Position numbers and translations under genes: made by a program. A model generated the notes under the pieces. It made no database searches. It had not been told where the DNA came from and saw only the letters and a list, made by a program, of their open reading frames with translations. Shown in pieces: positions 47,416-61,950 of a stretch of 64,000 nucleotides of DNA. The DNA is from an uncultured Roseivirgaceae bacterium (GTDB taxonomy: Bacteria; Bacteroidota; Bacteroidia; Cytophagales; Cyclobacteriaceae). The stretch lies in NCBI GenBank assembly GCA_964493505.1, contig CAZBNP010000007.1:70392-134391 (forward strand), read 5' to 3'. Each line of letters opens with the position of its first letter. Within the stretch, counting starts at the first letter, position 1.

Positions 47416-48723
47416 TCAATCTTCCTCCGGTTCGACGAAGCGATCAAAAATATCCACCAAAATGATCTGGTTCTTGATACGCTTGATCACAGTGAAGATA
47501 TAATCATCCTGTTCGATACTTTCGCCGACATTCGGAATTCGCCCCACGATATCAATCAGCATTCCCGCCAGCGTTACATAGGTTTCGTCTTCGGGAAGCG
47601 GGCGGGGAAGCATTTCATTCAGCGAAACCAGCGCGACTGATCCCTGGACCCGGTATTTCCGGTCATCGAGTCTTTCGACCATCGGGGTTTCGGTGTCGTA
47701 CTCATCCTGGATCTCCCCCACAAGTTCTTCCAGAATATCCTCCATCGTGATCACACCTTCCGTGCCCCCAAATTCATCCACCACGACAGCAAACTGAACA
47801 TGCTGTTTCTGGAAGTCTCTCATAATATCGATCAGTTTCTTGTTAGACGCGATATAATGAGCGGGGCGAAGGATCGTCTCGATAGAAAACGGCTTTCCCT
47901 CGTGCAACTTCAGCAGCAGGTCTTTCGTGAAGACAATACCCGCGACATGATCGATCGTCCCGTCAAAGACCGGCACACGCGAGTACCCGTTTTCCAGGAT
48001 CTTCTCGACAATCTGATCTACCGGCGACGTTTTGTTCACCGCGAATACATGGGTTCTGGGAACCATAGCCTGGCGCGCCGTGCGTTCGGCAAAATCGAAG
48101 GCATTTCGAATGATCTCATATTTGCGGGGCTCGATGGCGCCGCTCTTCTTACCCTGCTCCACCATCAGGCGGAGTTCTTCCGGCGAGTGGACTTCCGCCC
48201 CTTTCAGCGGCGTGATGCCGATGAGGCGAAGTACCCGGTTCGAAAACCCGTTGAGCAGCCAGATGAAGGGCCTGAATATCCAATAAAACACATTCAGCGG
48301 TGCAGCCAGCCACAGGGTGGCGCTCTCCGGACGCTGAATAGCGTATGATTTTGGCGCCAACTCGCCGAACACGATATGCAGAATAGTGATGACACCAAAA
48401 GCGACAGGAAAGGCGGCGCGATGCGCCGTCTCAGGATCCATACCCAGACCCAGCGCGGTAAAAAGATCGATTATAAGCCGGGAGACCACTGCCTCGCCAA
48501 TCCATCCCAACCCGAGGCTGGCGATCGTTATCCCCAACTGCGTTGCCGACAAGTAGGCGTCGAGGTTGGCAATAATGCGTTTGGACAACGCTGCCATCGG
48601 GTGACCTTCTCTCTCCTTGAGGTCGATTTGAGAACTCCTCACTTTAACAATAGCAAACTCCGCTGCAACGAAGAAACCGTTGAGAAGGACGAGAAAAATT
48701 GTCAACAGGATGTCGAATATCAT
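47416..48723 (-). CDS. HlyC/CorC family transporter (DUF21/CNNM + CBS pair + CorC domain)
   Basis: NGFFVAAEFA, TQLGIT, GELAPKS, GYSRVPV, VDEFGGTEGVITMEDILEE. Confidence 0.93.
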   Translation of the reverse strand: MIFDILLTIFLVLLNGFFVAAEFAIVKVRSSQIDLKEREGHPMAALSKRIIANLDAYLSATQLGITIASLGLGWIGEAVVSRLIIDLFTALGLGMDPETAHRAAFPVAFGVITILHIVFGELAPKSYAIQRPESATLWLAAPLNVFYWIFRPFIWLLNGFSNRVLRLIGITPLKGAEVHSPEELRLMVEQGKKSGAIEPRKYEIIRNAFDFAERTARQAMVPRTHVFAVNKTSPVDQIVEKILENGYSRVPVFDGTIDHVAGIVFTKDLLLKLHEGKPFSIETILRPAHYIASNKKLIDIMRDFQKQHVQFAVVVDEFGGTEGVITMEDILEELVGEIQDEYDTETPMVERLDDRKYRVQGSVALVSLNEMLPRPLPEDETYVTLAGMLIDIVGRIPNVGESIEQDDYIFTVIKRIKNQIILVDIFDRFVEPEED

Positions 48724-51734: not shown

Positions 51735-51745
51735 ATATCACCACG

Positions 51746-52855
51746 CTAGCCCTTCTCCAGCGCAGCGAATACGCGCGACGCGCCTTCAACAACGATCTCC
51801 CTATCCTTAAAAGCGTTGTGATTCCGGATCTCAACCCAGCCGTCCATCGCAACGCCGGTATCGATATCATCAACACGATAGCCGCCATCGCTCTTCCATA
51901 CCACAAACGACTTTCCATTGCGTGTAACTACTGCTGTTTCCGGAAGGGCATAGAGACTGTCACGTGAAAGCACAATCTCCGCCTCGACAAACATACCAGG
52001 CCTGAACATATCGTTGTTGTCTTCAATATGACCGTGCACATCAAATGTCCTCATATCCTCACTACCCTGCGGACTGATCAGCGAGATTTCGCCCAGGAAC
52101 GTCTCACCACCACCGCCCGCCAGACGAAAGCGAATTAACTGACCCTTGCGCACCTTTGCCACATCCGTCTCGAACACATTCAGGTGTAAGTGCAGATCGC
52201 TAAGGTCGACGATGTGAAACGAAACTTCTCTCGGTTCGACGAATTGTCCCCGGTGGTGATTAACCGCCGTCACAAATCCGGTAATCGGCGCACGCAGCGC
52301 GACATCCGGCTGAATGTGTCCTTCCTCAAGGCTACGCATATCCACGCCGATCATCCGGAGCCGTTCCTTCAAACCCGCCAGTCTCGCTTTCAATACATCA
52401 TACGATGACTCGCTCTCCTGGAATTTTTTCTGAGCTGCTGCATTCTGCTCGACCAGCGATCGCTGGCGCTCAAACTCCTTCGAGGCAAATCGCAGCTGCC
52501 CCAGCGTCTCCAGGTAGCCTTGTTGCAGGGATATGTATTCAGGGTTGTTCAGCCGCGCCAGGATCGCGCCCTTTTTCACATATTCTCCGGGTACGATGTT
52601 GGCATCGAGAATATATCCGCCTAGCGGTGCCGTAACAGACGCCTGGCTCTGCGGCGGCACTTCTACTTCACCGGTACACGACACAACCGGTGAAACCAGT
52701 CTGTATTCAATCCGCCCGGTGCGGATGCCGGCAAGCTGTCGCTGATCCGCTGTCATCACATCTCCCGGCGACACAACGGAATCATCTTCACGCCCGCCTG
52801 AACAGGCAGCGAGGAAGAAAGACACGATACAAAACAATTTATTATAGGTTCGCAT
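51746..52855 (-). CDS. Heavy-metal RND efflux periplasmic adaptor (CzcB/CusB-like), lipoprotein
   Basis: Lipobox LAAC; APLGGY lipoyl motif, HLHLNVFE; ATG 52855 lies 4 nt after the upstream stop. Confidence 0.88.
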   Translation of the reverse strand: MRTYNKLFCIVSFFLAACSGGREDDSVVSPGDVMTADQRQLAGIRTGRIEYRLVSPVVSCTGEVEVPPQSQASVTAPLGGYILDANIVPGEYVKKGAILARLNNPEYISLQQGYLETLGQLRFASKEFERQRSLVEQNAAAQKKFQESESSYDVLKARLAGLKERLRMIGVDMRSLEEGHIQPDVALRAPITGFVTAVNHHRGQFVEPREVSFHIVDLSDLHLHLNVFETDVAKVRKGQLIRFRLAGGGGETFLGEISLISPQGSEDMRTFDVHGHIEDNNDMFRPGMFVEAEIVLSRDSLYALPETAVVTRNGKSFVVWKSDGGYRVDDIDTGVAMDGWVEIRNHNAFKDREIVVEGASRVFAALEKG

Positions 52856-52859
52856 ACTA

Positions 52860-55800
52860 TTATTCACTTTGTAAGTATTCTAGTTGAATGACTGATTGAT
52901 TGTATTTATAGACAGCCTCGAGGAAACCCAGGCGCATTTCTGTATAGCGTTCGATACTCCGGAGGTACTGGAAGAAATCGATCTCACCGGCTTCGATCTG
53001 GCGGACCGCCGTTTGCTGGATGAAGGCTGCCTGATCAAGTCCTTCATCCCGGTAATAGCCGAGCAGTCGCTGATACTTCCGATAATCTGAGGTTGCCCTT
53101 CTTCGGGCATTGTGCAAACCGCGCGCTCCCAATTCAAGCTGCTGCTCCGCCTGCATAGCTCCGATCTTCGCTCTTTGAATATCCGATTGTCGTGGAGAAA
53201 ACCAGAGAGGAACGGCCACTCCCACGGCAAATCCCCGGAGCCCTCTGAAGCGAACGTCGGCTTCTGTAATGTTCTGACGAAAATACCCTAACCGGATTTC
53301 AGGAAACAGAAGAGCCTTCTCAAGCCGGGTTTGCATCTCACTTGCTTCAAGCTGCTTCTCCAATACCCTGATGGCCGGGTGATCGACGGTCGCCGTGTCC
53401 GCTATCGTGACAAGTGTCAGCAGCGTATCCAGTGCGGGGACAATGGCCTCGTCAGTCGAAAGCAGTAACTGTAGGTCGGCCATTGCCTGCACCAGGTTCT
53501 CAGACTGCATCAGGTGGTTGTTGCGCAACTCATGCAGACTACTTTCGATGAGTTTCTTCTCCAGCAAGCTGCGTTCACCCACCCTATATTGAAGGTCTAT
53601 ACGTTTCTCAAAATCGGCGTATTGCAACAATTGAGAACCCAACTCTTTTACTACCTGTCGGTAGTACATCCAGGTATGCCACGCATTACGCACTTCAAGC
53701 ACGAGGTCTCGTTGGTTCAACGCATCTCTTTCTTCCGCCAGCTGCACGTGATGCCTATTGATCCGTGCGCGCTGAACGTGTGCAGGAACACTCCCCAGGC
53801 TTTGCGTCACATCCAGCGAAGGATCGTGCTGATCGCTGTTGAGTTGTCCGTAGCGCAGGTCAATATCCGTCATCGGCAATTGTATCGCACTCTTCCGTTG
53901 AACCTTTTGTCGCTCGATCTCAAGCGAGGATATTCTCATACGAGGATTCGTTTCGACAGCAATCCCGACTGCTTCCTCTTCCGTCAGGACTCGCGAGGGT
54001 CGCTCCTGCGAAAAACCCGGAATACTGCATAGAAGCAAAAGTACGATCGTCAGTGACGGTCTGATTCGCCGCCGCGTGTTCCGCTCACGGTATTCTTCCA
54101 TCGACTTATAGAGCACGGGGAGCACGACCAACGTCAGCAGCGTAGCGCTTACCAGTCCGCCGATCACAACGGTAGCCAGTGGCCGCTGCACTTCCGCACC
54201 CGCTGTATTCGAGAGCGCCATGGGGAGAAACCCCAGCGCAGCAACCGAAGCTGTCATGACAACCGGACGCAGTCTGGTCATCCCCCCTCTGATGACGACA
54301 TCTTTGAGACCACCGTGTACCTGGGCTTTCAACTCGTTGAAATAGCTGATAAGCACAATACCATTCAGCACCGCCACACCAAACAACGCGATAAAACCAA
54401 CACCGGCGGAAATACTGAACGGCAAATCCCGAAGCCACAAAGCAAAGACTCCTCCTATTGCCGAAAGGGGGACAGCGGCAAAAATAAGAAAGGCATACCG
54501 GAACGATCCGAATGCGAAATAGAGCAGGATCACGATGAGCATCAACACGATCGGAATAGTGACCATGAAACGTTGCTTAGCTTTCTTAAGATTTTCGAAG
54601 TCGCCTCCATACGTTATATGGTATCCGGGAGGAAGGTCAAGCTTGTCGCCGAGCGCGATCTGCACCTCGTTTACCAGGCTTTCAATATCTCTTCCCCGCA
54701 CGTTTATCCCGAGCGTAATGCGTCGGCGTGCGTTTTCACGTGAGATTTGCGCGGGGCCGACCGATTCCGTTACCGAGACCAGTTCGGCTATGGGCACGAG
54801 TTGTCCGTAGCTGTCTTTTACAAAGAGGCCGTTCAGGTTGAACTTCGATCGTTGCTGTTTATTCAACCGCACCACCAGATCAAACTTTCTCTCTCCTTCA
54901 AACACAACTCCAGTGTGTTCTCCGGCAAACGCCGCGCGAATAACCGTGTTCAATGCCTCTACTGATATACCGCGCTGAGCCAGGCGCGGGCGATGATACC
55001 TGACCAGCAACTGTGGCAACCCCTCTGTCTGTTCAACGACAACATCCGCCGCACCGGGAATGTCAGCTACAATGTCTGCCGCGATAACTGCCTGGTTGTG
55101 CAGGACATCGAGATCCTCTCCATATATCCGAACCGCCACATCAGTTTTCGACCCCGTCATCAACTCGTTAAACCTCAGTTGTATCGGTTGTGTAAAATCG
55201 AATGAGGCGCCGATGATCGCCGAAAGTTTCTCCTCCATCTTGTCCACGAGCTCTTCACGCGTTTCCGCTGACGTCCACTCGCTCTTCTCCTTCATCACAA
55301 TCATAATGTCTGCGAGTTCAAAAGGCATCGGATCGGTGGGAACCTCAGCCGTACCGATCTTGGAAACCACCTGCCGGACTTCGGGAAAATTTTCAAGCAG
55401 AATGCGTTCGGCTTGTGTAGCGGTTCGCATACTTTCATCGAGCGATGTGCCAGCCGGCAACGTCATTTGCATGGCAATATCGCCTTCCTCCAGTTGGGGA
55501 ATAAATACGCCTCCCAGGCGCGTGAAGACAAAAATACTTACCACGAAAAGAAGAGCGGATACCCCTACCGTAATCCGAGGATAAGCAAGAGCGCCGCGCA
55601 GGCAAGGTTCGTAAACACGTCGTAGAGCGCCGACAATGCGATCGGAAAAATTCTTTTTCAGACTGATCGTCCGGCCGAGCAAAAGCGCGGAGAGGGCAGG
55701 CACGTAGGTAACCGATAGGATAAGGGCACCGAGTATCGCAAAGCTTACCGTCTGCGCCATCGGGCGAAACATCTTGCCTTCAATGCCTGTCAGTGTCATG

Positions 55801-57182
55801 ACAGGAATGAATACCACGATGATAATGAGCACACCAAACGCTGCAGTCCTGTAGATCGAAGAAGCAGACCGGACTACTACAGCATCCATCTCCGCCCGAC
55901 TAAGTGTTTTACCTGCATGATAGACCACGAACGCATGTAACACGCCTTCCACAATGATAACCGCGCCGTCTACTACGATCCCAAAATCGAGCGCTCCCAG
56001 CGACATAAGATTCGCCGAGACCCCAAAGAGATGCATCATGATAAAAGCAAAAAACAGAGACAGAGGGATAACGGAGGCAACTATGAGCCCCGCCCGCCAG
56101 TTGCCGAGCAAAAGTATCAGCACCACTATCACGATCAGCCCACCTTCCAGCAGATTGGTCATGATCGTCCGGGTGGTTCTACCGACAAGTTCAGACCGGT
56201 CGAGATAGGGTACAATACTGACACCCTTGGGCAATGATGCCTGAATCTCTTCTACCCGGCGATGGATATTGTCAAGTGTCTGCGAAGAGTTTGCGTTTTT
56301 GAGCATGAGCGTAATACCTCCGACCGCCTCTCCCTCGCCATTTTTTGTCATCGCACCATACCGCGGCGCATGGCCGTTTTCAATCGTCGCTACCTGCCTG
56401 AGCAAAACCGGCGTCCCCTCCTGCCGCACCACGATATTTCCGATGTCCTCCAAGTCCGCGACAACGCCTTCCGCACGTATATAGATAGCGTTGGGACCGC
56501 GATCCAGGTAGCTTCCACCGGTGTTCTGGTTGTTCGCCTTGAGTGCCGCAACCACGTCTGGAATAGTGAGACCAACGCTTCGGAGCCGCATGGGGTCAAT
56601 CGTAACCTGAATCTGTTTCAGGTATCCGCCAAAACTGCTAACCTCCACCACACCTTCAATGCCGGACAATTGGCGCTTTACGATCCAGTCCTGAATCGTG
56701 CGCAGTTCCATGGCGTCATACTCATGTTCAAATCCATCGTCTACAGCCAGCGTATATTGATAGATCTCGCCGAGTCCTGTAGTGATAGGCATCAGTCCAG
56801 GATGCCCCATCCCTTCGGGAATATCCTCAGCGGCGATAGCGATCTGTTCGCTTACAAACTGCCGTGTGTCGGATATTGAAATGTCGTCTTCGAAGACAAT
56901 TGTGACAACTGAAAGTCCGTAGCGGGAAACTGACCGCAATTCAATAACACCCGGGAGGTTAGCCATGGAAACCTCAATCGGATAGGTGATGAATCGCTCT
57001 ACTTCCTCCGCGCTTAGCGAAGGCGAGGTAGTGACAACCTGTACCTGATTGTTCGTGAGATCCGGTACCGCGTCTATCGGGATTTCATTCATAGCGAAGA
57101 TCCCCCCGCCGATAATGGCAAGCGTGAAGATGGCAACTACGAACTTGTTGTGAACCGAAAATGATATTACTCGTTCAAACAT
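52860..57182 (-). CDS. CusA/CzcA family heavy-metal RND transporter fused to a C-terminal TolC-like outer membrane factor domain
   Basis: IDAVPDLTNNQVQV, SLGALDFGIVVDG, RLRPVVMTA, AEVQRPLATVVIGG; about 400 extra C-terminal residues with an OEP pattern. Confidence 0.94.
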   Translation of the reverse strand: MFERVISFSVHNKFVVAIFTLAIIGGGIFAMNEIPIDAVPDLTNNQVQVVTTSPSLSAEEVERFITYPIEVSMANLPGVIELRSVSRYGLSVVTIVFEDDISISDTRQFVSEQIAIAAEDIPEGMGHPGLMPITTGLGEIYQYTLAVDDGFEHEYDAMELRTIQDWIVKRQLSGIEGVVEVSSFGGYLKQIQVTIDPMRLRSVGLTIPDVVAALKANNQNTGGSYLDRGPNAIYIRAEGVVADLEDIGNIVVRQEGTPVLLRQVATIENGHAPRYGAMTKNGEGEAVGGITLMLKNANSSQTLDNIHRRVEEIQASLPKGVSIVPYLDRSELVGRTTRTIMTNLLEGGLIVIVVLILLLGNWRAGLIVASVIPLSLFFAFIMMHLFGVSANLMSLGALDFGIVVDGAVIIVEGVLHAFVVYHAGKTLSRAEMDAVVVRSASSIYRTAAFGVLIIIVVFIPVMTLTGIEGKMFRPMAQTVSFAILGALILSVTYVPALSALLLGRTISLKKNFSDRIVGALRRVYEPCLRGALAYPRITVGVSALLFVVSIFVFTRLGGVFIPQLEEGDIAMQMTLPAGTSLDESMRTATQAERILLENFPEVRQVVSKIGTAEVPTDPMPFELADIMIVMKEKSEWTSAETREELVDKMEEKLSAIIGASFDFTQPIQLRFNELMTGSKTDVAVRIYGEDLDVLHNQAVIAADIVADIPGAADVVVEQTEGLPQLLVRYHRPRLAQRGISVEALNTVIRAAFAGEHTGVVFEGERKFDLVVRLNKQQRSKFNLNGLFVKDSYGQLVPIAELVSVTESVGPAQISRENARRRITLGINVRGRDIESLVNEVQIALGDKLDLPPGYHITYGGDFENLKKAKQRFMVTIPIVLMLIVILLYFAFGSFRYAFLIFAAVPLSAIGGVFALWLRDLPFSISAGVGFIALFGVAVLNGIVLISYFNELKAQVHGGLKDVVIRGGMTRLRPVVMTASVAALGFLPMALSNTAGAEVQRPLATVVIGGLVSATLLTLVVLPVLYKSMEEYRERNTRRRIRPSLTIVLLLLCSIPGFSQERPSRVLTEEEAVGIAVETNPRMRISSLEIERQKVQRKSAIQLPMTDIDLRYGQLNSDQHDPSLDVTQSLGSVPAHVQRARINRHHVQLAEERDALNQRDLVLEVRNAWHTWMYYRQVVKELGSQLLQYADFEKRIDLQYRVGERSLLEKKLIESSLHELRNNHLMQSENLVQAMADLQLLLSTDEAIVPALDTLLTLVTIADTATVDHPAIRVLEKQLEASEMQTRLEKALLFPEIRLGYFRQNITEADVRFRGLRGFAVGVAVPLWFSPRQSDIQRAKIGAMQAEQQLELGARGLHNARRRATSDYRKYQRLLGYYRDEGLDQAAFIQQTAVRQIEAGEIDFFQYLRSIERYTEMRLGFLEAVYKYNQSVIQLEYLQSE

Positions 57183-57300
57183 ATTGATTGATCATGATAT
57201 GGAAATGGAGTCGACCCCCTGTCAGGCGGTAGCTGCCATCCGTTCAGAATAATGGATTGATTGGGGTGCTATGCACACCACAGAAGAAAAGATAAACAGT

Positions 57301-57696
57301 CTACCCGACGGGGGGACCGCGGAAGGAGGTAGTGGAGGATAACGCTTGGTGCCGGGTCAATCCCGCGATACCCCCGTCGATAAACTCGGCGTGTACACCG
57401 GTCGCTGAAGCGGCAGTAATGGTAAATGTTAATGGGGGGAGATGCGCAATAAACCGGGATGAGAACTCAATCTCGGTATCGGCGTTCCTCTTGAAAATTT
57501 CAAGATGTCCCGTACCCAGGTCAGTGGAGAGTACCCTTAGTAAGAGATTGCTGTCTTCGAGGGAGAAAACACAATTATTGTGAACCAGGACGGCCTGCTC
57601 GTGGCTGACCTGCGCATGATGGTGGGGCACCACAGTATGCAGCATCGCAATGCCGTACGCCAGAAGGATCAATATGAACCGGCCCCAGGATTTCAT
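57301..57696 (-). CDS. His-rich upstream ORF with N-terminal hydrophobic segment and C-terminal RGPP (DUF2946/CruR-like architecture)
   Basis: ATG 57696: MKSWGRFILILLAYGIAMLHTVVPHHH...DLGTGHLE...SFRGPPVG*; 131 aa; 118 nt upstream of the czcA-like start. Confidence 0.78.
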   Translation of the reverse strand: MKSWGRFILILLAYGIAMLHTVVPHHHAQVSHEQAVLVHNNCVFSLEDSNLLLRVLSTDLGTGHLEIFKRNADTEIEFSSRFIAHLPPLTFTITAASATGVHAEFIDGGIAGLTRHQALSSTTSFRGPPVG

Positions 57697-57701
57697 TCCC
57701 C

Positions 57702-57734
57702 CAAAGATACAGCGAATGGCGGATAACATCCAAA
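57702..57734 (-). promoter_or_regulatory. Bacteroidota promoter for the uORF-czc transcript (probably leaderless)
   Basis: Minus strand TTTG (57731-57734), 21-nt spacer, TATCTTTG (57702-57709); ATG follows after 5 nt. Confidence 0.7.
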
Positions 57735-57891
57735 TAGCCGGTGTCTGTAGATTTGAATCTACAACCGGTACTGCAAACGGCTTCTTTTGAGGGTGGTATA
57801 AAGATTTCCGTAGATAAGGCCGGGCATATAAGCACCGCCGGTAATCGGGAAACCGGAAATTTTCCCGCATTATAAATTAAACTACTGAATT

Positions 57892-58059
57892 ATGTTACGT
57901 TGGTCAATTACATTCTTTGTCATCGCCATCATAGCTGCGATCTTCGGCTTCGGTGGTATCGCGGCAGGTGCGGCATCAATCGCGAAAGTGTTGTTCTTCA
58001 TTTTTCTGGCGCTCTTCATTATCACCATACTGTTTGGCGCCAGTCTTTTCAAAAAATGA
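57892..58059 (+). CDS. DUF1328 (UPF0391/YtjA-like) small membrane protein, below the ORF-track length cutoff
   Basis: [55 protein letters not shown]. Confidence 0.92.
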
Positions 58060-58105
58060 TCAAAGCCCCTGCGTCACAACCGGAACAGGTTGTGGCGTGG
58101 GGACC

Positions 58106-59068
58106 TTATCCTTCCAGGCGACAAAAATTGTCCATACCCAGGTGTATGAGCGCATCTCCCGCATTGATTACAGGACCGTTGTTTAGTCCGATGATATAAC
58201 CTGTCTGTGTTGTTTTTACTTCCTCTTTGAATTCACCAAACGGGTCGGTGATAGTGCCAACCCATTCTCCGCGGTGAACGAGTTGTCCGCTTTGCACATT
58301 AGGTTGAAAGAGGCCGGCGTGTTTTGCCCGTATCCAGGAAGTATTCCAGATGACACGATTGGGTTCAGCGGGTTCGGGAGCGTTGGCAATCATACCCAGG
58401 TGCTTCATCAGCCGCAACGTACCGGAAAGTCCTTCTTCAATAGCATGAGCATCGAACCTCAGGGATTCGCCACCTTCATATACAATGATCCGTTTGCCTT
58501 TGCGCGATGCCTCTCGCCTGAGCGAGTTGGGCCGGAAGGGCATATCGATCGTAAAGGGAGCGCCGAAGGCATTTGCGAGCTCAAGATTCTTCCCGTCTCT
58601 CAATACAGCACGCACCTGCGGGTAGTTGGAGCGCATAGCTCCGCCAGTATGGAAATCCACGCCACAGTCGATGGCCGGTATTACATCATGCATAAGGTAA
58701 TAGGCCACGCGGCTCGCAAGTGAACCTGTTCTTCGTCCGGGAAATGAGCGATTGACATCCTTGCCGTCGGGAACCTCACGCGAATAGTTAAGGAATCCGT
58801 ACACATTGATAACCGGCATACAGACCACTGTTCCACGTATGACCTTGTGCAACCCGCGGTCGAGGATTCGCCGCACAATTTCCATCCCATTCAGTTCATC
58901 GCCATGCATACCCGCAATCAATGCCAGAACAGGCCCGTCCTCCGATCCACGCGAAACATAGATCGGCGTATCGATCAGGGTGTGGGACGGCAGTCTTGCA
59001 ATGTTAATATTGATCTCCCTGAATTCACCCGGCTCAATCTCATGATTAGCAACGATCAGCTTTTTCAA
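58106..59068 (-). CDS. Succinylglutamate desuccinylase/aspartoacylase (M14-like) family protein
   Basis: AGMHGDELNG, DVNRSFPG, VDFHTG, YEGGE; C-terminal biotinyl/lipoyl-like domain; TTG start. Confidence 0.92.
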   Translation of the reverse strand: MKKLIVANHEIEPGEFREININIARLPSHTLIDTPIYVSRGSEDGPVLALIAGMHGDELNGMEIVRRILDRGLHKVIRGTVVCMPVINVYGFLNYSREVPDGKDVNRSFPGRRTGSLASRVAYYLMHDVIPAIDCGVDFHTGGAMRSNYPQVRAVLRDGKNLELANAFGAPFTIDMPFRPNSLRREASRKGKRIIVYEGGESLRFDAHAIEEGLSGTLRLMKHLGMIANAPEPAEPNRVIWNTSWIRAKHAGLFQPNVQSGQLVHRGEWVGTITDPFGEFKEEVKTTQTGYIIGLNNGPVINAGDALIHLGMDNFCRLEG

Positions 59069-59075
59069 AACTATA

Positions 59076-59160
59076 CAGATTTAAGATTCAAGATTCAAAA
59101 TTCAGAGTCTTCCTCCTAATCCTGAACCTTGAATCTCAAACCCTGAACCCTTGAATTTTG
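59076..59160. repeat. Inverted pair of degenerate heptamer arrays between rimK and the deacylase gene
   Basis: CAGATTT AAGATTC AAGATTC AAAATTC AGAGTCT ... ACCTTGA ATCTCAA ACCCTGA ACCCTTGA ATTTTG. Confidence 0.8.
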
Positions 59161-59165
59161 CGTGA

Positions 59166-60074
59166 TTATGCATTGACGGTATCCCGCTGGATCTTGTGTT
59201 TACCCGCAAATTTCTCCACAAAGTCGTAGATCCTGCCCGCGATATCGACCTTGGTTGCGCCCTCGATCCCTTCGAGGCCGGGCGAGGAATTGACCTCCAG
59301 AATGAGCGGTCCGCGATTTGAGGGCAGCATATCGACACCTGCCACACCGAGCCCCATCTTCCTTGCCGCCATCAGCGCGGCCGCCTTCTCCTGCTTACTC
59401 AACTTCACCACACTGGCGGTGCCTCCGCGGTGAAGATTGGACCTGAACTCCCCCTCCTTAGCCTGCCTGCGCATCGCGCCGACCACTTCATTGTTAACCA
59501 CAAATGCCCGTATGTCGGCTCCCTTTGCCTCCTTGATAAACTCCTGGATAATAATACGCGCATGAATGCCATGAAAAGCTTCGACGATCGACTTCGCAAC
59601 CTTCTTGGTCTCCGCCATCACCACACCAAGCCCCTGCGTGCCTTCCAGTAGTTTAATGACTACCGGCGCACCGCCCACAGCTTCAACAATACCTTCGGTG
59701 TCCCGCGAATAATCCATAAAAATTGTCTTCGGTAACCCCAGGCCTGCACGCGACAATATCTGTAAACTGCGTAATTTGTCGCGCGAGCGAATAAGAGCTT
59801 GGGATTCCACCGCTGTAAAGACCTTCATCATCTCAAACTGCCGGATCACAGCAGCGCCGTAGAACGTCACCGATGCCCCGACACGGGGAATGACCGCATC
59901 AAAATAGTCGAGACGTCTGCCGTGATAGAGCACCATCGGGTTTTTCTTTTCAATGAAGAGCACGCATTTCATGTGGTCGATGATCTCGACGTGATGCCCC
60001 CTCTCTTCTCCAGCTTGTTTTAAACGCTTCGTAGAATAGAGTGACGGGTTCCTGGAGAGAATTGCGATATTCAT
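59166..60074 (-). CDS. rimK: RimK family alpha-L-glutamate ligase (ATP-grasp)
   Basis: [48 protein letters not shown]. Confidence 0.93.
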
Positions 60075-60088
60075 ATTAAATATGGTGA

Positions 60089-60535
60089 CTATTTTTTTGA
60101 ACGAACAGCGGCGCGGGCTTTCCGCTTCTGCCGGAATGACACGTTTCTTTTGGAAACATCAATCAAAAAACGATTGTGTAAAATTTTGCGCCCGATCAAA
60201 ATGGGAAATTTCAGCGATCCCCGGTTAGACAACGAAAATTCAGTGGTAATCACCTCATCCAGAATAGTTACGGCGGTAACAATAACAAACCGGTTCTCGA
60301 TCTCGCCAAACGAATTCTTGATCTTCCTCTTCTCAAACTTCTCAAAAACGAACTTCATCCCCGTGAATTCGGGATGCTCCTCATCGAGCAGGATAAACTC
60401 AAGTTTCCCGTCGACTACTTCCGCTTTCAGACAATGCAGACTGCATGTGTATGCGCCGGTATCAATCTTTGCATGAATGTTATTCAAGCCCAGTTCCGGT
60501 AGGTCAACCCGGTCATATCGCCCCAAAATTTGCAT
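60089..60535 (-). CDS. RimK-associated retropepsin-like putative protease (RimB / so-called ATP-dependent zinc protease family)
   Basis: [29 protein letters not shown]. Confidence 0.88.
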
Positions 60536-60618: not shown

Positions 60619-61950
60619 TTACCGGCCAAATGGATTTATGGCAGAAAGTGCTCTTTTTCCACCCCCCATCTTGTTCATCGTTTTCATCATTTTGCGCATT
60701 TCCGAAAACTGTTTGAGCAGGTTGTTTACCTCCTGTACGGTACGTCCACTTCCTTTGGCAATACGCGCCTTACGGCTTCCGCTGATCAACTCCGGATTCT
60801 CCCGTTCCGCCATCGTCATCGACCGGATGATTGCCTCTATAGGCTTAAATGAATTATCGTCGATATCGGCTCCTTTCAGCGCTTTTCCTACGCCAGGAAT
60901 CATTCCCAAAAGGTCCTTCATATTCCCCATCTTCTTCACTTGCTGCAGCTGCTGAAGGAAATCGTTGAAGTCGAATTGGTTCTTCCTTATCTTTTTGGAG
61001 AGACGCTGTGCTTCGTCTTCATCGTAAGCCTGCTGGGCCCGTTCCACGAGAGAGATCACATCGCCCATCCCGAGGATCCTGCTGGCCATCCGATCGGGAT
61101 AGAAGCGGTCAATCTCTTCCATCTTCTCGCCGGTGCTGATAAACTTGATCGGTTTATCTACGACGCGGCGAATTGACAATGCCGCTCCACCCCGGGTGTC
61201 GCCGTCCAGCTTTGTCAGCACAACACCGTCGAAGTTCAGGCGCTCGTTAAACGTCCGCGCTGTATTGACAGCGTCCTGGCCCGTCATAGAATCGACTACA
61301 AAGAGCGTCTCCGACGGCTTCAAAACCTCCTTCAGCCGCGCGATTTCGTTCATCATCTCCTCGTCCACGGCCAGACGACCGGCCGTATCGACTACAACAA
61401 CCTTGTGATTGTTGTTTCTGGCGTGCTCTATCGCCGCCTTTGCAATCTTCACGGCATCCTTGTTCTCAGGTTCGGCATACACCTCCACACCAACCTGCTC
61501 ACCGAGTACTTTCAACTGATCTATGGCGGCAGGACGGTAGATGTCGCATGCTGTGAGCAGAACCTTTCTTCCCTGCTTTTTCAGATATAATGCGAGCTTT
61601 CCGGAAAATGTGGTCTTACCCGACCCCTGCAACCCCGAAATCAGGATAACAGCCGGGTTTCCTTCGATCCGGATATCTTCACTCCGGCCTCCCATCAGCG
61701 AGGTGAGCTCGTCGCTGGTAATCTTTGTCAGTAACTGGCCGGGAGAGATCGCAGTGATCACATCCTGCCCCAGAGCCTTTTCGCGGATATCGTCGGTAAC
61801 CTCCTTCGCAACTTTGTAGTTCACGTCGGCGTCAATCAGCGCCTTTCGGATCTCCTTGACAGTGGACGCCACGTTTATCTCCGTGATCTTTCCCTGCCCT
61901 TTCAGGGTCTGGAACGCTTTTTCCAGCTTAAAACTCAGATTATCGAACAT
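60619..61950 (-). CDS. ffh: Signal recognition particle protein Ffh
   Basis: GLQGSGKTT, DTAGRL, TKLDGDTRGGAA, RMASRILGMGD, Met-rich M domain. Confidence 0.97.
   Translation of the reverse strand: MFDNLSFKLEKAFQTLKGQGKITEINVASTVKEIRKALIDADVNYKVAKEVTDDIREKALGQDVITAISPGQLLTKITSDELTSLMGGRSEDIRIEGNPAVILISGLQGSGKTTFSGKLALYLKKQGRKVLLTACDIYRPAAIDQLKVLGEQVGVEVYAEPENKDAVKIAKAAIEHARNNNHKVVVVDTAGRLAVDEEMMNEIARLKEVLKPSETLFVVDSMTGQDAVNTARTFNERLNFDGVVLTKLDGDTRGGAALSIRRVVDKPIKFISTGEKMEEIDRFYPDRMASRILGMGDVISLVERAQQAYDEDEAQRLSKKIRKNQFDFNDFLQQLQQVKKMGNMKDLLGMIPGVGKALKGADIDDNSFKPIEAIIRSMTMAERENPELISGSRKARIAKGSGRTVQEVNNLLKQFSEMRKMMKTMNKMGGGKRALSAINPFGR

Follow-up and report, generated by a model that had tools for sequence, protein, structure and literature searches.

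We examined a 64,000-nucleotide (nt) stretch of DNA from an uncultured Roseivirgaceae bacterium (contig CAZBNP010000007.1, positions 70,392 to 134,391), called the window here, in which a small open reading frame (ORF) precedes a heavy-metal efflux pump operon on the minus strand. This upstream ORF (uORF) encodes a protein of 131 amino acids (aa), and its stop codon (57303–57301) is separated by a 118-nt gap from the ATG (57182, same strand) of a gene for a permease of the resistance-nodulation-division (RND) superfamily. The uORF product, read on the minus strand from 57696 to 57301, has the sequence MKSWGRFILILLAYGIAMLHTVVPHHHAQVSHEQAVLVHNNCVFSLEDSNLLLRVLSTDLGTGHLEIFKRNADTEIEFSSRFIAHLPPLTFTITAASATGVHAEFIDGGIAGLTRHQALSSTTSFRGPPVG and is laid out as MKSWGRF-ILILLAYGIAMLHTVVPHHH...STDLGTGHLEIFK...SFRGPPVG. 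The genes of the operon and the features of the uORF are as follows.

57301–57696, minus strand: leader ORF (uORF) of 131 aa, stop codon included in the coordinates; a candidate metal-sensing arrest peptide.
57628–57678, minus strand: N-terminal hydrophobic segment, residues 7–23, following K2 and R6; predicted signal peptide or N-in signal anchor, modelled as a helix by AlphaFold2.
57616–57639, minus strand: motif 1, H20-T-V-V-P24-H25-H-H27 (H-x3-P-H-x-H in the family, from the 59-member alignment), at the outer end of the hydrophobic helix.
57493–57522, minus strand: motif 2, D59-L-G-T-G-H64-L-E66-I-F68 (DLGxGHLExF in the family, from alignment and selection).
57310–57321, minus strand: codons CGC GGT CCC CCC for R126-G-P128-P129, the predicted arrest site, from sequence and family conservation.
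52860–57182, minus strand: czcA::OEP, a 1440-aa heavy-metal RND permease (residues 1–1036) fused in frame to a TolC-like outer-membrane factor (PF00873, 3.8e-271; PF02321, 7.6e-28; TIGR00914, 1125 bits); the presumed regulated gene.
51746–52867, minus strand: czcB-like gene for a periplasmic adaptor (TIGR01730, 4e-39; HlyD_D23, 3e-34), overlapping the end of czcA::OEP by 8 nt.
51738–51768, minus strand: terminator-like hairpin with a T-rich tail at the end of czcB, found by terminator scan and likely to mark the end of the operon.

The frame of the uORF is open upstream as far as 57870, giving 189 aa as the longest ORF, and the database gene call for it has 142 aa. Close homologues start at MK[SP]W[GC]RF, and the other members of the family at the equivalent position. 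Because the homologues begin at MK[SP]WGRF and a promoter box abuts that ATG, the true start is, as judged from this comparison, position 57696. Pairwise codon comparison of the uORF with its relatives gave proportions of nonsynonymous differences (pN) of 0.13–0.39 against proportions of synonymous differences (pS) of 0.57–0.73, and an overall ratio of nonsynonymous to synonymous rates (dN/dS) of about 0.13–0.29, values that are rough because synonymous sites are close to saturation. Constraint was strongest in residues 1–30, 51–70 and 113–131, and relaxed in residues 31–50 and 71–112. Since pN lies well below pS and the constraint falls into islands, the codon comparison indicates that the uORF is a translated gene selected at the protein level, with variable spacers between its conserved islands. 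Library scans returned no Pfam match at E<=1 and no NCBIfam match for the protein, as a chance ORF would have it, and a profile search of the Protein Data Bank returned no relative of solved structure. The proposal that the ORF is not a gene is nevertheless refuted by the 73 matches to the family profile, by the selection just described, and by the conservation of both synteny and start position, and we regard it as virtually certain to be wrong.

A word-indexed search recovered only three relatives of the uORF. A search with the family profile against 1.84 billion cluster representatives gave 73 matches, and the family comprises more than 70 sequence clusters at 50% identity. We aligned 59 members, R[AG]PP having been among the selection criteria for these 59; the mean column identity of the alignment is 26%. 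Eight residues are invariant (H20, P24, H25, H27, G61, R126, P128 and P129) and H64, L65 and E66 are conserved at 90% or above, the whole giving a family signature of a hydrophobic helix, H-x3-P-H-x-H, about 36 aa, DLGxGHLExF, about 60 aa, [FL]-R-[AG]-P-P, 1–5 aa and the stop codon. Despite a variable linker, the distances between motifs are constrained, at 31–38 residues between H27 and H64 and 51–72 (median 60) between H64 and R126. Motif 2 lies in a region with pN of 0.02–0.26 against pS of 0.5–1.0. The candidate metal ligands conserved in the family are H20, H25, H27, H64 and E66; no conserved Cys pair of the CXXC or CxxxC type is found in the family alignment. AlphaFold2, run on the 59-sequence alignment, modelled with confidence only a helix of residues 3–22 (pLDDT 91–92), the remainder scoring 50–68 and the overall pTM being 0.30. 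Because the confident model is limited to this N-terminal helix, a nascent-chain sensor is a better match to the prediction than a stable globular domain would be.

A sequence-only reading of this DNA had singled out the same ORF for a signal-like hydrophobic N-terminus, an HxxxxHHH cluster, further His and Cys residues and an FRGPPVG end, 118 nt upstream of a czcA-like gene. All the residues that it named are present (H20, H25–27, H32, H39, C42, DLGTGHLE at 59–66 and the terminal FRGPPVG), the hydrophobic segment is found at residues 7–23, largely coinciding with the modelled helix, and both the gap and the assignment of the next gene to the CusA/CzcA family of RND permeases (TIGR00914) hold. 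The proposed HxxxxHHH sensor survives as H-x3-P-H-x-H, but the middle His of the HHH varies; of the further residues, H32 and H39 lack conservation, and C42 is kept in the closest subgroup alone. Two comparative expectations of that reading, that the arrest motif would be conserved and that relatives would lie upstream of metal transporters, agree with the counts given below, as does its suggestion of a leaderless start, the promoter box ending 4–5 nt before the ATG in most loci.

RGPP occupies residues 126–129 of the 131 in the uORF product. Among 74 short family sequences, 67 contain R[AG]PP (38 RAPP and 29 RGPP), and in 63 of the 74 it stands 1–5 residues before the stop. A potential concern with this count is that the family profile includes the C-terminus, and the 25 hits that match only in the N-terminal part provide a fairer test of the motif; in these hits the match stops short of profile position 115, yet 18 of the 25 retain a terminal R[AG]PP. 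Across the loci, the Arg of the motif is encoded by CGC, CGG, AGG or AGA, that is by two codon families, and the Gly/Ala and Pro codons vary freely. Since the codon at the R126 position varies in this manner, selection acts on the peptide and not on the RNA. Bacterial proteomes strongly avoid R[AG]PP, and its occurrences are concentrated where small exported uORF products end (PMC12992588). In a six-frame scan of the window, R[AG]PP occurred twice in all segments of at least 40 aa (75,117 residues) and was found in no other real gene frame of the 64 kb. The second occurrence (RAPP at 48315–48326, minus strand, 6 residues before the stop of a 58-aa segment) lies out of frame inside a 435-aa gene at 47416–48723 and was dismissed as chance. 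RAPP and RGPP block peptide-bond formation when their two Pro codons are in the P and A sites (PMC12992588, PMC10951233), and RGPP gives the most robust arrest, refractory to EF-P, when embedded in ApdP, ApcA and SecM (PMC12992588). By analogy with the toeprints of RAPP peptides (PMC12992588), Pro128 (57315–57313) is predicted to be in the P site and Pro129 (57312–57310) in the A site of the stalled ribosome.

We then compared loci, scanning one genome per GTDB species and adding metagenomic contigs. The genome scan gave 13 clear loci, all from metagenome-assembled genomes of Cytophagales (Flammeovirgaceae, Chryseosolibacter, Roseivirgaceae and Cyclobacteriaceae); locus L018 (Candidatus Limimorpha) matches over 35 residues only and was left out of the counts. 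An RND gene of the czcA type directly follows the uORF in all 19 loci that extend downstream, with spacers of 42–150 nt, and the loci that reach far enough also carry the fused OEP domain and czcB. This synteny is kept even in members that are only 21–24% identical to the window protein. Because the flanking genes differ between loci, the conserved module is limited to exactly three genes: the uORF, czcA::OEP and czcB. No regulator gene adjoins the module in the window, and none is conserved next to it in the related loci. The window permease scores 679 bits against the Zn exporter ZneA and 583 bits against CusA, the more distant of the two, and its membrane domain carries DFG..DGA..VEG (residues DFGIVVDGAVIIVEG), which, from signatures of heavy-metal efflux RND permeases, we take to favour divalent cations over Cu(I)/Ag(I).

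These linkage data bear on the idea that the uORF product is an arrest peptide which monitors export, membrane insertion or envelope stress, as do SecM, MifM and VemP, and that its histidines serve a purpose other than metal binding. The classical peptides of the RAPP type are secretion monitors released by the pulling force of the translocon (PMC12992588, PMC10951233), and the N-terminal export signal of the uORF family is conserved. However, a metal pump, and not a component of Sec or YidC, stands downstream in 19 of 19 loci; the closest solved relative of the pump is ZneA; and, if the Arg and two Pro of the arrest motif and G61 are set aside, invariance falls on residues that typically bind metal (H20, H25 and H27, with H64 and E66 nearly invariant). 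We consider a pure export monitor very improbable.

The promoter of the operon appears to lie directly against the uORF.

57702–57709, minus strand: –7 element TATCTTTG (consensus TAHHTTTG), followed by 5 nt, GGGGA, and then the ATG; from sequence and related loci.
57731–57734, minus strand: –33 element TTTG of the predicted sigma-A promoter (Bacteroidota type), 21 nt upstream of the –7 box; from sequence, a weaker signal than the –7 box.

A strict –7 box stands at –12 or –13 (once at –15) in 13 of the 19 loci, with a one-mismatch box at –12 in three more, and all 16 close loci have TAHHTTTG or a one-mismatch variant ending 4–5 nt before the ATG. TTTG or TTG is found about 20 nt upstream of the –7 box in most related loci. 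In Flavobacterium, the –7 box spans –12 to –5 and transcription starts 4–5 nt after it (PMC6847099, PMC9723704). From the position of the –7 box 4–5 nt before the ATG and this spacing in Flavobacterium, the first nucleotide of the operon mRNA is predicted to be the A of the uORF ATG or its immediate predecessor, and the mRNA hence to be leaderless. Leaderless mRNAs make up only about 5% of mRNAs in Bacteroidota (PMC6847099, PMC9723704), and the conserved leaderless layout of the uORF family is unusual for the phylum. No strict sigma-A –7 box was found inside the uORF or the spacer in any of the 19 loci (background 0.13 boxes per kb per strand), and czcA, having no such promoter of its own, must by this analysis be read from the uORF transcript. 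Matches to the E. coli type of sigma-70 promoter occurred at chance level and were discarded, that consensus being irrelevant to Bacteroidota.

The alternative that the promoter at 57702–57734 is itself the point of control, an unlinked metal regulator acting on initiation while the uORF is co-transcribed with no regulatory role, draws on the fact that heavy-metal RND operons are usually under two-component or extracytoplasmic function (ECF) sigma control, and such a regulator could lie elsewhere in the genome, beyond the 64 kb of the window. The promoter is, however, close to the housekeeping sigma-A consensus and conserved across loci, no inverted-repeat operator was found overlapping it in the window, and no regulator gene is conserved beside the module. 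In addition, such control would leave the invariant R[AG]PP unexplained. We judge it quite improbable.

The nearest functional precedents for the uORF are CutF of Rhodobacter capsulatus (PMC9973294; bioRxiv 10.1101/2025.02.05.636593) and CruR (Bp2923) of Bordetella pertussis (PMC9426467). Like the window uORF, CutF is a small leader with an N-terminal metal motif and a C-terminal stalling motif upstream of a metal gene, although export, binding and stalling are only predicted here. CutF is exported by Sec, and copper promotes its stalling, which turns on the downstream detoxification enzyme (PMC9973294; bioRxiv 10.1101/2025.02.05.636593). CutF-like proteins have been reported in Bacteroidota and beside ACR_tran/OEP genes, and His-only clusters have been noted as well (PMC9973294). 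CutF differs in its ligands (CxxxC) and stall motif (PPP type), where the window family has H-x3-P-H-x-H, DLGxGHLExF and R[AG]PP, and in its stem-loop shielding the ribosome-binding site (RBS), whereas none is detectable in the window family and the mRNA is predicted to be leaderless; the gene downstream of the window uORF is moreover an RND pump. CruR shares with the window uORF a C-terminal R[AG]PP in a leader for which export and arrest are here predicted. Its RAPP arrest has been confirmed by toeprinting (PMC12992588), and the arrest is read out by Rho-dependent termination within a long spacer and not by masking of the RBS (PMC9426467), a model that fits the C-rich, G-poor and weakly structured spacer of the window. 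CruR differs in being a DUF2946 protein with CXXC that senses copper and controls an importer, a TonB-dependent transporter; copper relieves its arrest and switches expression off, the opposite of the sign needed for the exporter of the window.

The window uORF also has the features of the wider RAPP/RGPP class in being under 300 aa, having a hydrophobic N-terminus and lying directly upstream on the same strand. With ApdA, ApdP, ApcA and the Streptomyces lividans set (PMC7897499, PMC10951233, PMC12992588) it has in common the R[AG]PP core near the stop, the small size, the N-terminal localisation signal and the position directly upstream of the controlled gene. The characterised members control Sec/YidC components or actinobacterial copper and thioredoxin genes, whereas the window family precedes a CzcA-type pump. 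Among uORFs upstream of CusA/CzcA, Fujiwara 2025 (PMC12992588) counted 133 RGPP against 4 AGPP, a 60-fold enrichment, and 50 RAPP against 7 AAPP; most uORFs of this class were predicted as 'SP' by DeepTMHMM (PMC12992588). One entry of that table, WP_143402003.1 (...VPHHH...DLGDGHLEDF...LRGPPSLS, before a 4371-nt CusA/CzcA gene), is a clear member of the window family. The literature on arrest and metal-sensing uORFs cited here reports no experimentally tested member that is linked to an RND pump or comes from Bacteroidota (PMC12992588, PMC9973294, PMC9426467, PMC10951233).

With regard to established protein families, the uncharacterised DUF6769 (PF20558) has an N-terminal module in common with the window family, consisting of a hydrophobic helix and VPHHH. 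Alignment by hhalign of the window family to the DUF6769-annotated WP_018337519.1 gave 91% probability over 30 N-terminal columns; this protein, from the Fujiwara dataset, ends in GRAPPTVIA and precedes an RND adaptor gene. Weak DUF6769 matches occur in 13 of the 59 family members (best E-value 8e-6); the window uORF has no DUF6769 match at E<=1, and the centre of the DUF6769 example is rich in Cys and His where the window family has DLGxGHLExF. By these profile comparisons the window family is a distant relative of DUF6769, or shares a module with it, and is not a member. CzcI of Cupriavidus metallidurans is set apart from the window uORF by its description, being without a C-terminal proline motif. 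The sequence-only reading had called the uORF an analogue of CruR and CutF. The analogy is apt, but there is no homology to DUF2946, the family of those two: none of the 59 members matches it, and hhalign against a DUF2946 protein gave 7% probability, over the RAPP tail only. That reading also overestimated the novelty of the case, since CutF already has the metal-ON sign and RGPP/RAPP uORFs upstream of CusA/CzcA have already been tabulated (PMC12992588). Its interpretation is thus partly supported: what it predicted for computation was found, and a stem-loop read-out of the SecM/CutF type was not. The concept of the arrest uORF and its CusA/CzcA class are already published, and the present work is a confirmation and refinement. 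What it adds beyond the cited papers is a signature for the family with its spacing, a conserved promoter of the leaderless type, linkage without exception to a fused CzcA-OEP, and the negative result on RBS masking.

The comparison of loci shows conserved architecture, synteny and promoter position, and the searches turned up no other regulatory element. We consider it probable, with a good measure of doubt, that the uORF is a metal-responsive arrest-peptide regulator acting in cis in the manner of CutF and CruR. That the metal is sensed by the His motifs of the uORF peptide itself falls a little short of an even call. Far less confidence attaches to any specific read-out of the stall than to the arrest-peptide regulator as such.

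The sequence of events that we envisage is as follows. RNA polymerase would start at, or 1 nt before, the ATG, and a 70S ribosome would load once the 5' end has emerged. The N-terminal hydrophobic segment would send the nascent chain to the Sec/signal recognition particle (SRP) pathway. At R126-G-P-P129, bond formation would fail between the ...FRGP-tRNA in the P site and the Pro-tRNA in the A site. About 95 residues would then be outside the tunnel, with H-x3-P-H-x-H at the outer face of the membrane. About 60 residues are needed to span the ribosomal tunnel and the translocon, as nascent-chain force profiles indicate, and DLGxGHLExF lies about 60 residues from the arrest site, which would be enough; we infer that both metal-ligand motifs have just emerged beyond the membrane when the ribosome stalls at Pro128/129. 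A divalent metal bound by the His, Asp and Glu residues, probably Zn, Co or Cd given a ZneA/CzcA-like pump, would change the pulling force and so alter the duration of a stall whose site is 3 codons ahead of the stop. Whether the promoterless pump genes downstream are expressed would depend on this ribosome, stalled as the uORF ends. Because the product is an exporter, the expected sign is that metal prolongs the stall and that the stall means ON, as in CutF.

To consider the read-out, we examined the RNA between the predicted stall site and czcA, where the following features were noted.

57183–57300, minus strand: intergenic region of 118 nt, C-rich relative to G (31 C, 22 G), with no sigma-A box, intrinsic terminator or Rfam match.
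57204–57240, minus strand: best local hairpin of the spacer by folding (–13.6 kcal/mol), ending 21 nt before the czcA ATG.
57208–57228 (approximate), minus strand: spacer segment CCGCCUGACAGGGGGUCGAC, complementary to the arrest and stop codons by duplex prediction.
57363–57379, minus strand: uORF-internal upstream arm of a strong stem, which the F-R-G-P-P-V codons (57306–57322) complete as the second arm; an inverted repeat specific to the window.

A terminator scan of the window detected no intrinsic terminator between the uORF and czcA, and a scan of 56900–58100 returned no Rfam family, which excludes a riboswitch of the NiCo/czcD type. The spacer has more C than G in 15 of 16 loci, and the coding sequence of czcA has less C than G; this rut-like bias is observed, although Rho dependence is not reliably computable from sequence. 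Spacers fold better than shuffles (z<–2) in 8 of 15 loci. In the window, the arrest codons form with the spacer segment a duplex of –26.7 kcal/mol (z –2.8; 4 of 300 shuffles as good), and with uORF codons of about 107–112 a 17-nt, 88% complementary repeat with a duplex of –36.2 kcal/mol (z –4.2; 0 of 300 shuffles). The window arrest codons thus have two alternative partners, a three-segment layout reminiscent of an attenuator. The stem within the uORF is not conserved in the 18 other loci (mean z –0.17), and pairing of the arrest codons with the spacer or the upstream uORF was set aside as a family mechanism and treated as lineage-specific. In loci L012–L017 (Cyclobacteriaceae), a GC-rich hairpin of differing sequence occupies the same position in the spacer, 10–35 nt past the uORF stop (for example GCGCGG...CCGCGC and UGCGGCA...UGCCGCA), and is followed by CUGAU in L012, L015 and L017; for two of these, L015 and L017, complementarity to the F-R-A codons extends over the 3' arm plus CCUGA (z –5.4 and –4.1). 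A subgroup-specific switch by alternative pairing may be at work here.

A number of observations weigh against control of the pump by an arrest at the end of the uORF, or against parts of that scheme, and the first of these concern the RNA. The window spacer is no more structured than its shuffles (z +0.19), and hairpin positions vary among the loci, so that a conserved spacer hairpin was rejected. The arrest codons pair significantly with the spacer in no more than 4 of 15 loci, the window among them, and the mean z is –1.3. By partition-function folding in the 19 loci, blocking the footprint of the stalled ribosome shifts the predicted accessibility of the czcA start by a mean of +0.02, and by 0.00 in the window. 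As there is no consistent change in accessibility in the 19 loci, RBS unmasking of the SecM/CutF type was rejected as a conserved read-out. More generally, no conserved stem-loop shielding the czcA start, and no other RNA element linking the stall to czcA, was found among the loci compared. Further observations on this side concern the peptide and its expression. R[AG]PP is absent from 7 of the 74 short family sequences, several of which look like fragments, with one having KAPP and one RGSP. Arrest at RGPP has been shown with ribosomes of E. coli, B. subtilis and Streptomyces, not of Bacteroidota; upstream context matters, and the motif alone is no proof of arrest. The uORF sequence was matched only in metagenomic DNA runs, none of them RNA or ribosome-profiling runs. 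The identity of the metal and the regulatory sign are expectations drawn from the type of pump. Finally, some purifying selection acts on the central motif and extends even to the linker (dN/dS 0.2–0.5), as would also fit a functional mature protein.

This last observation leads to the reading in which the uORF product is a mature accessory metal-binding partner of the pump (cf. CusF, CzcI and AcrZ), membrane-anchored or periplasmic, which delivers or gates metal at CzcA, R[AG]PP then being a structural or interaction motif or the site of a minor pause. Conservation of the His/Asp/Glu motifs and of protein length, purifying selection that extends beyond the arrest motif, strict co-occurrence and inferred co-transcription with the pump, and the failure to find an RNA read-out element are all as such a protein would have them. 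It is less easily reconciled with the R[AG]PP motif, which is under strong counter-selection in ordinary proteins and clusters at the C-terminal ends of small uORF products destined for export (PMC12992588), and whose near-invariance at 1–5 residues from the stop is hard to explain structurally. In addition, AlphaFold2 gives no confident fold past the helix, no relative has been solved, and no mature protein is detectable for CutF, the nearest analogue in function (PMC9973294). We regard an accessory protein as unlikely, yet worth serious attention, and it can coexist with a regulatory role.

For the arrest-peptide reading, the preferred guess at the read-out is protection of the C-rich, G-poor spacer from Rho-dependent termination, as for CruR, or from mRNA decay. 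Bacteroidota do without Shine-Dalgarno sites. With no shielding hairpin and a C-rich, G-poor spacer, Rho or mRNA stability appears a more likely route of read-out than unmasking of the start. The most specific form of the proposal combines these elements: a His/Glu nascent-chain sensor about 60 residues from an RGPP stall, on a leaderless mRNA where the first ribosome follows close behind RNA polymerase, would read periplasmic Zn, Co or Cd and control an RND efflux pump by a read-out other than RBS unmasking, either by blocking the access of Rho or RNase to the C-rich spacer or by re-initiation. Taken as a whole, this combination is tentative and we would not expect all of it to hold.

If it is true, no arrest-peptide attenuator would have been described before this Cytophagales family in any phylum that lacks Shine-Dalgarno sites, and the output logic would be new among metal-sensing uORFs and without precedent for an efflux pump. 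If the arrest-peptide prediction as such holds, the heavy-metal RND pumps of a large group of soil and aquatic Bacteroidota would be switched by a self-contained sensor in cis, the nascent leader peptide, in contrast to the two-component or ECF control known from Proteobacteria. With 131 codons and 118 nt, the locus is a compact test case for the action of RGPP on Bacteroidota ribosomes, for how metal binding outside the membrane lengthens or shortens a stall, and for the control of a downstream gene by a stalled ribosome where neither a Shine-Dalgarno site nor a shielding hairpin is present. There is also a consequence for annotation, as the ORFs of this family are listed as 'hypothetical' and their starts are often miscalled, as with the 131 aa found here against the 142-aa database call and the 189-aa longest ORF.

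Several features of the pump genes and their surroundings were noted in addition. The permease and the TolC-like factor form a single reading frame, and this in-frame fusion is conserved in loci L005–L017, L020–L022 and L024, with lengths of 1439–1472 aa. Between the permease and OEP parts of the fusion, at about residues 1050–1075, lies an internal hydrophobic segment, RRRIRPSLTIVLLLLCSIPGFSQE, that resembles a signal sequence. A divergent gene for a 55-aa small membrane protein of the DUF1328 family (57892–58059, plus strand) begins 195 nt upstream of the uORF start and is not kept beside the module in relatives. Farther upstream of the module is a run of three genes (58106–60535, minus strand), presumably encoding a succinylglutamate desuccinylase/aspartoacylase-like protein, a RimK-type ATP-grasp ligase and a small RimK-associated protease-like protein, and then a gene at 60619–61950 which we take to be ffh, for the SRP protein; these genes are unrelated to the uORF finding.

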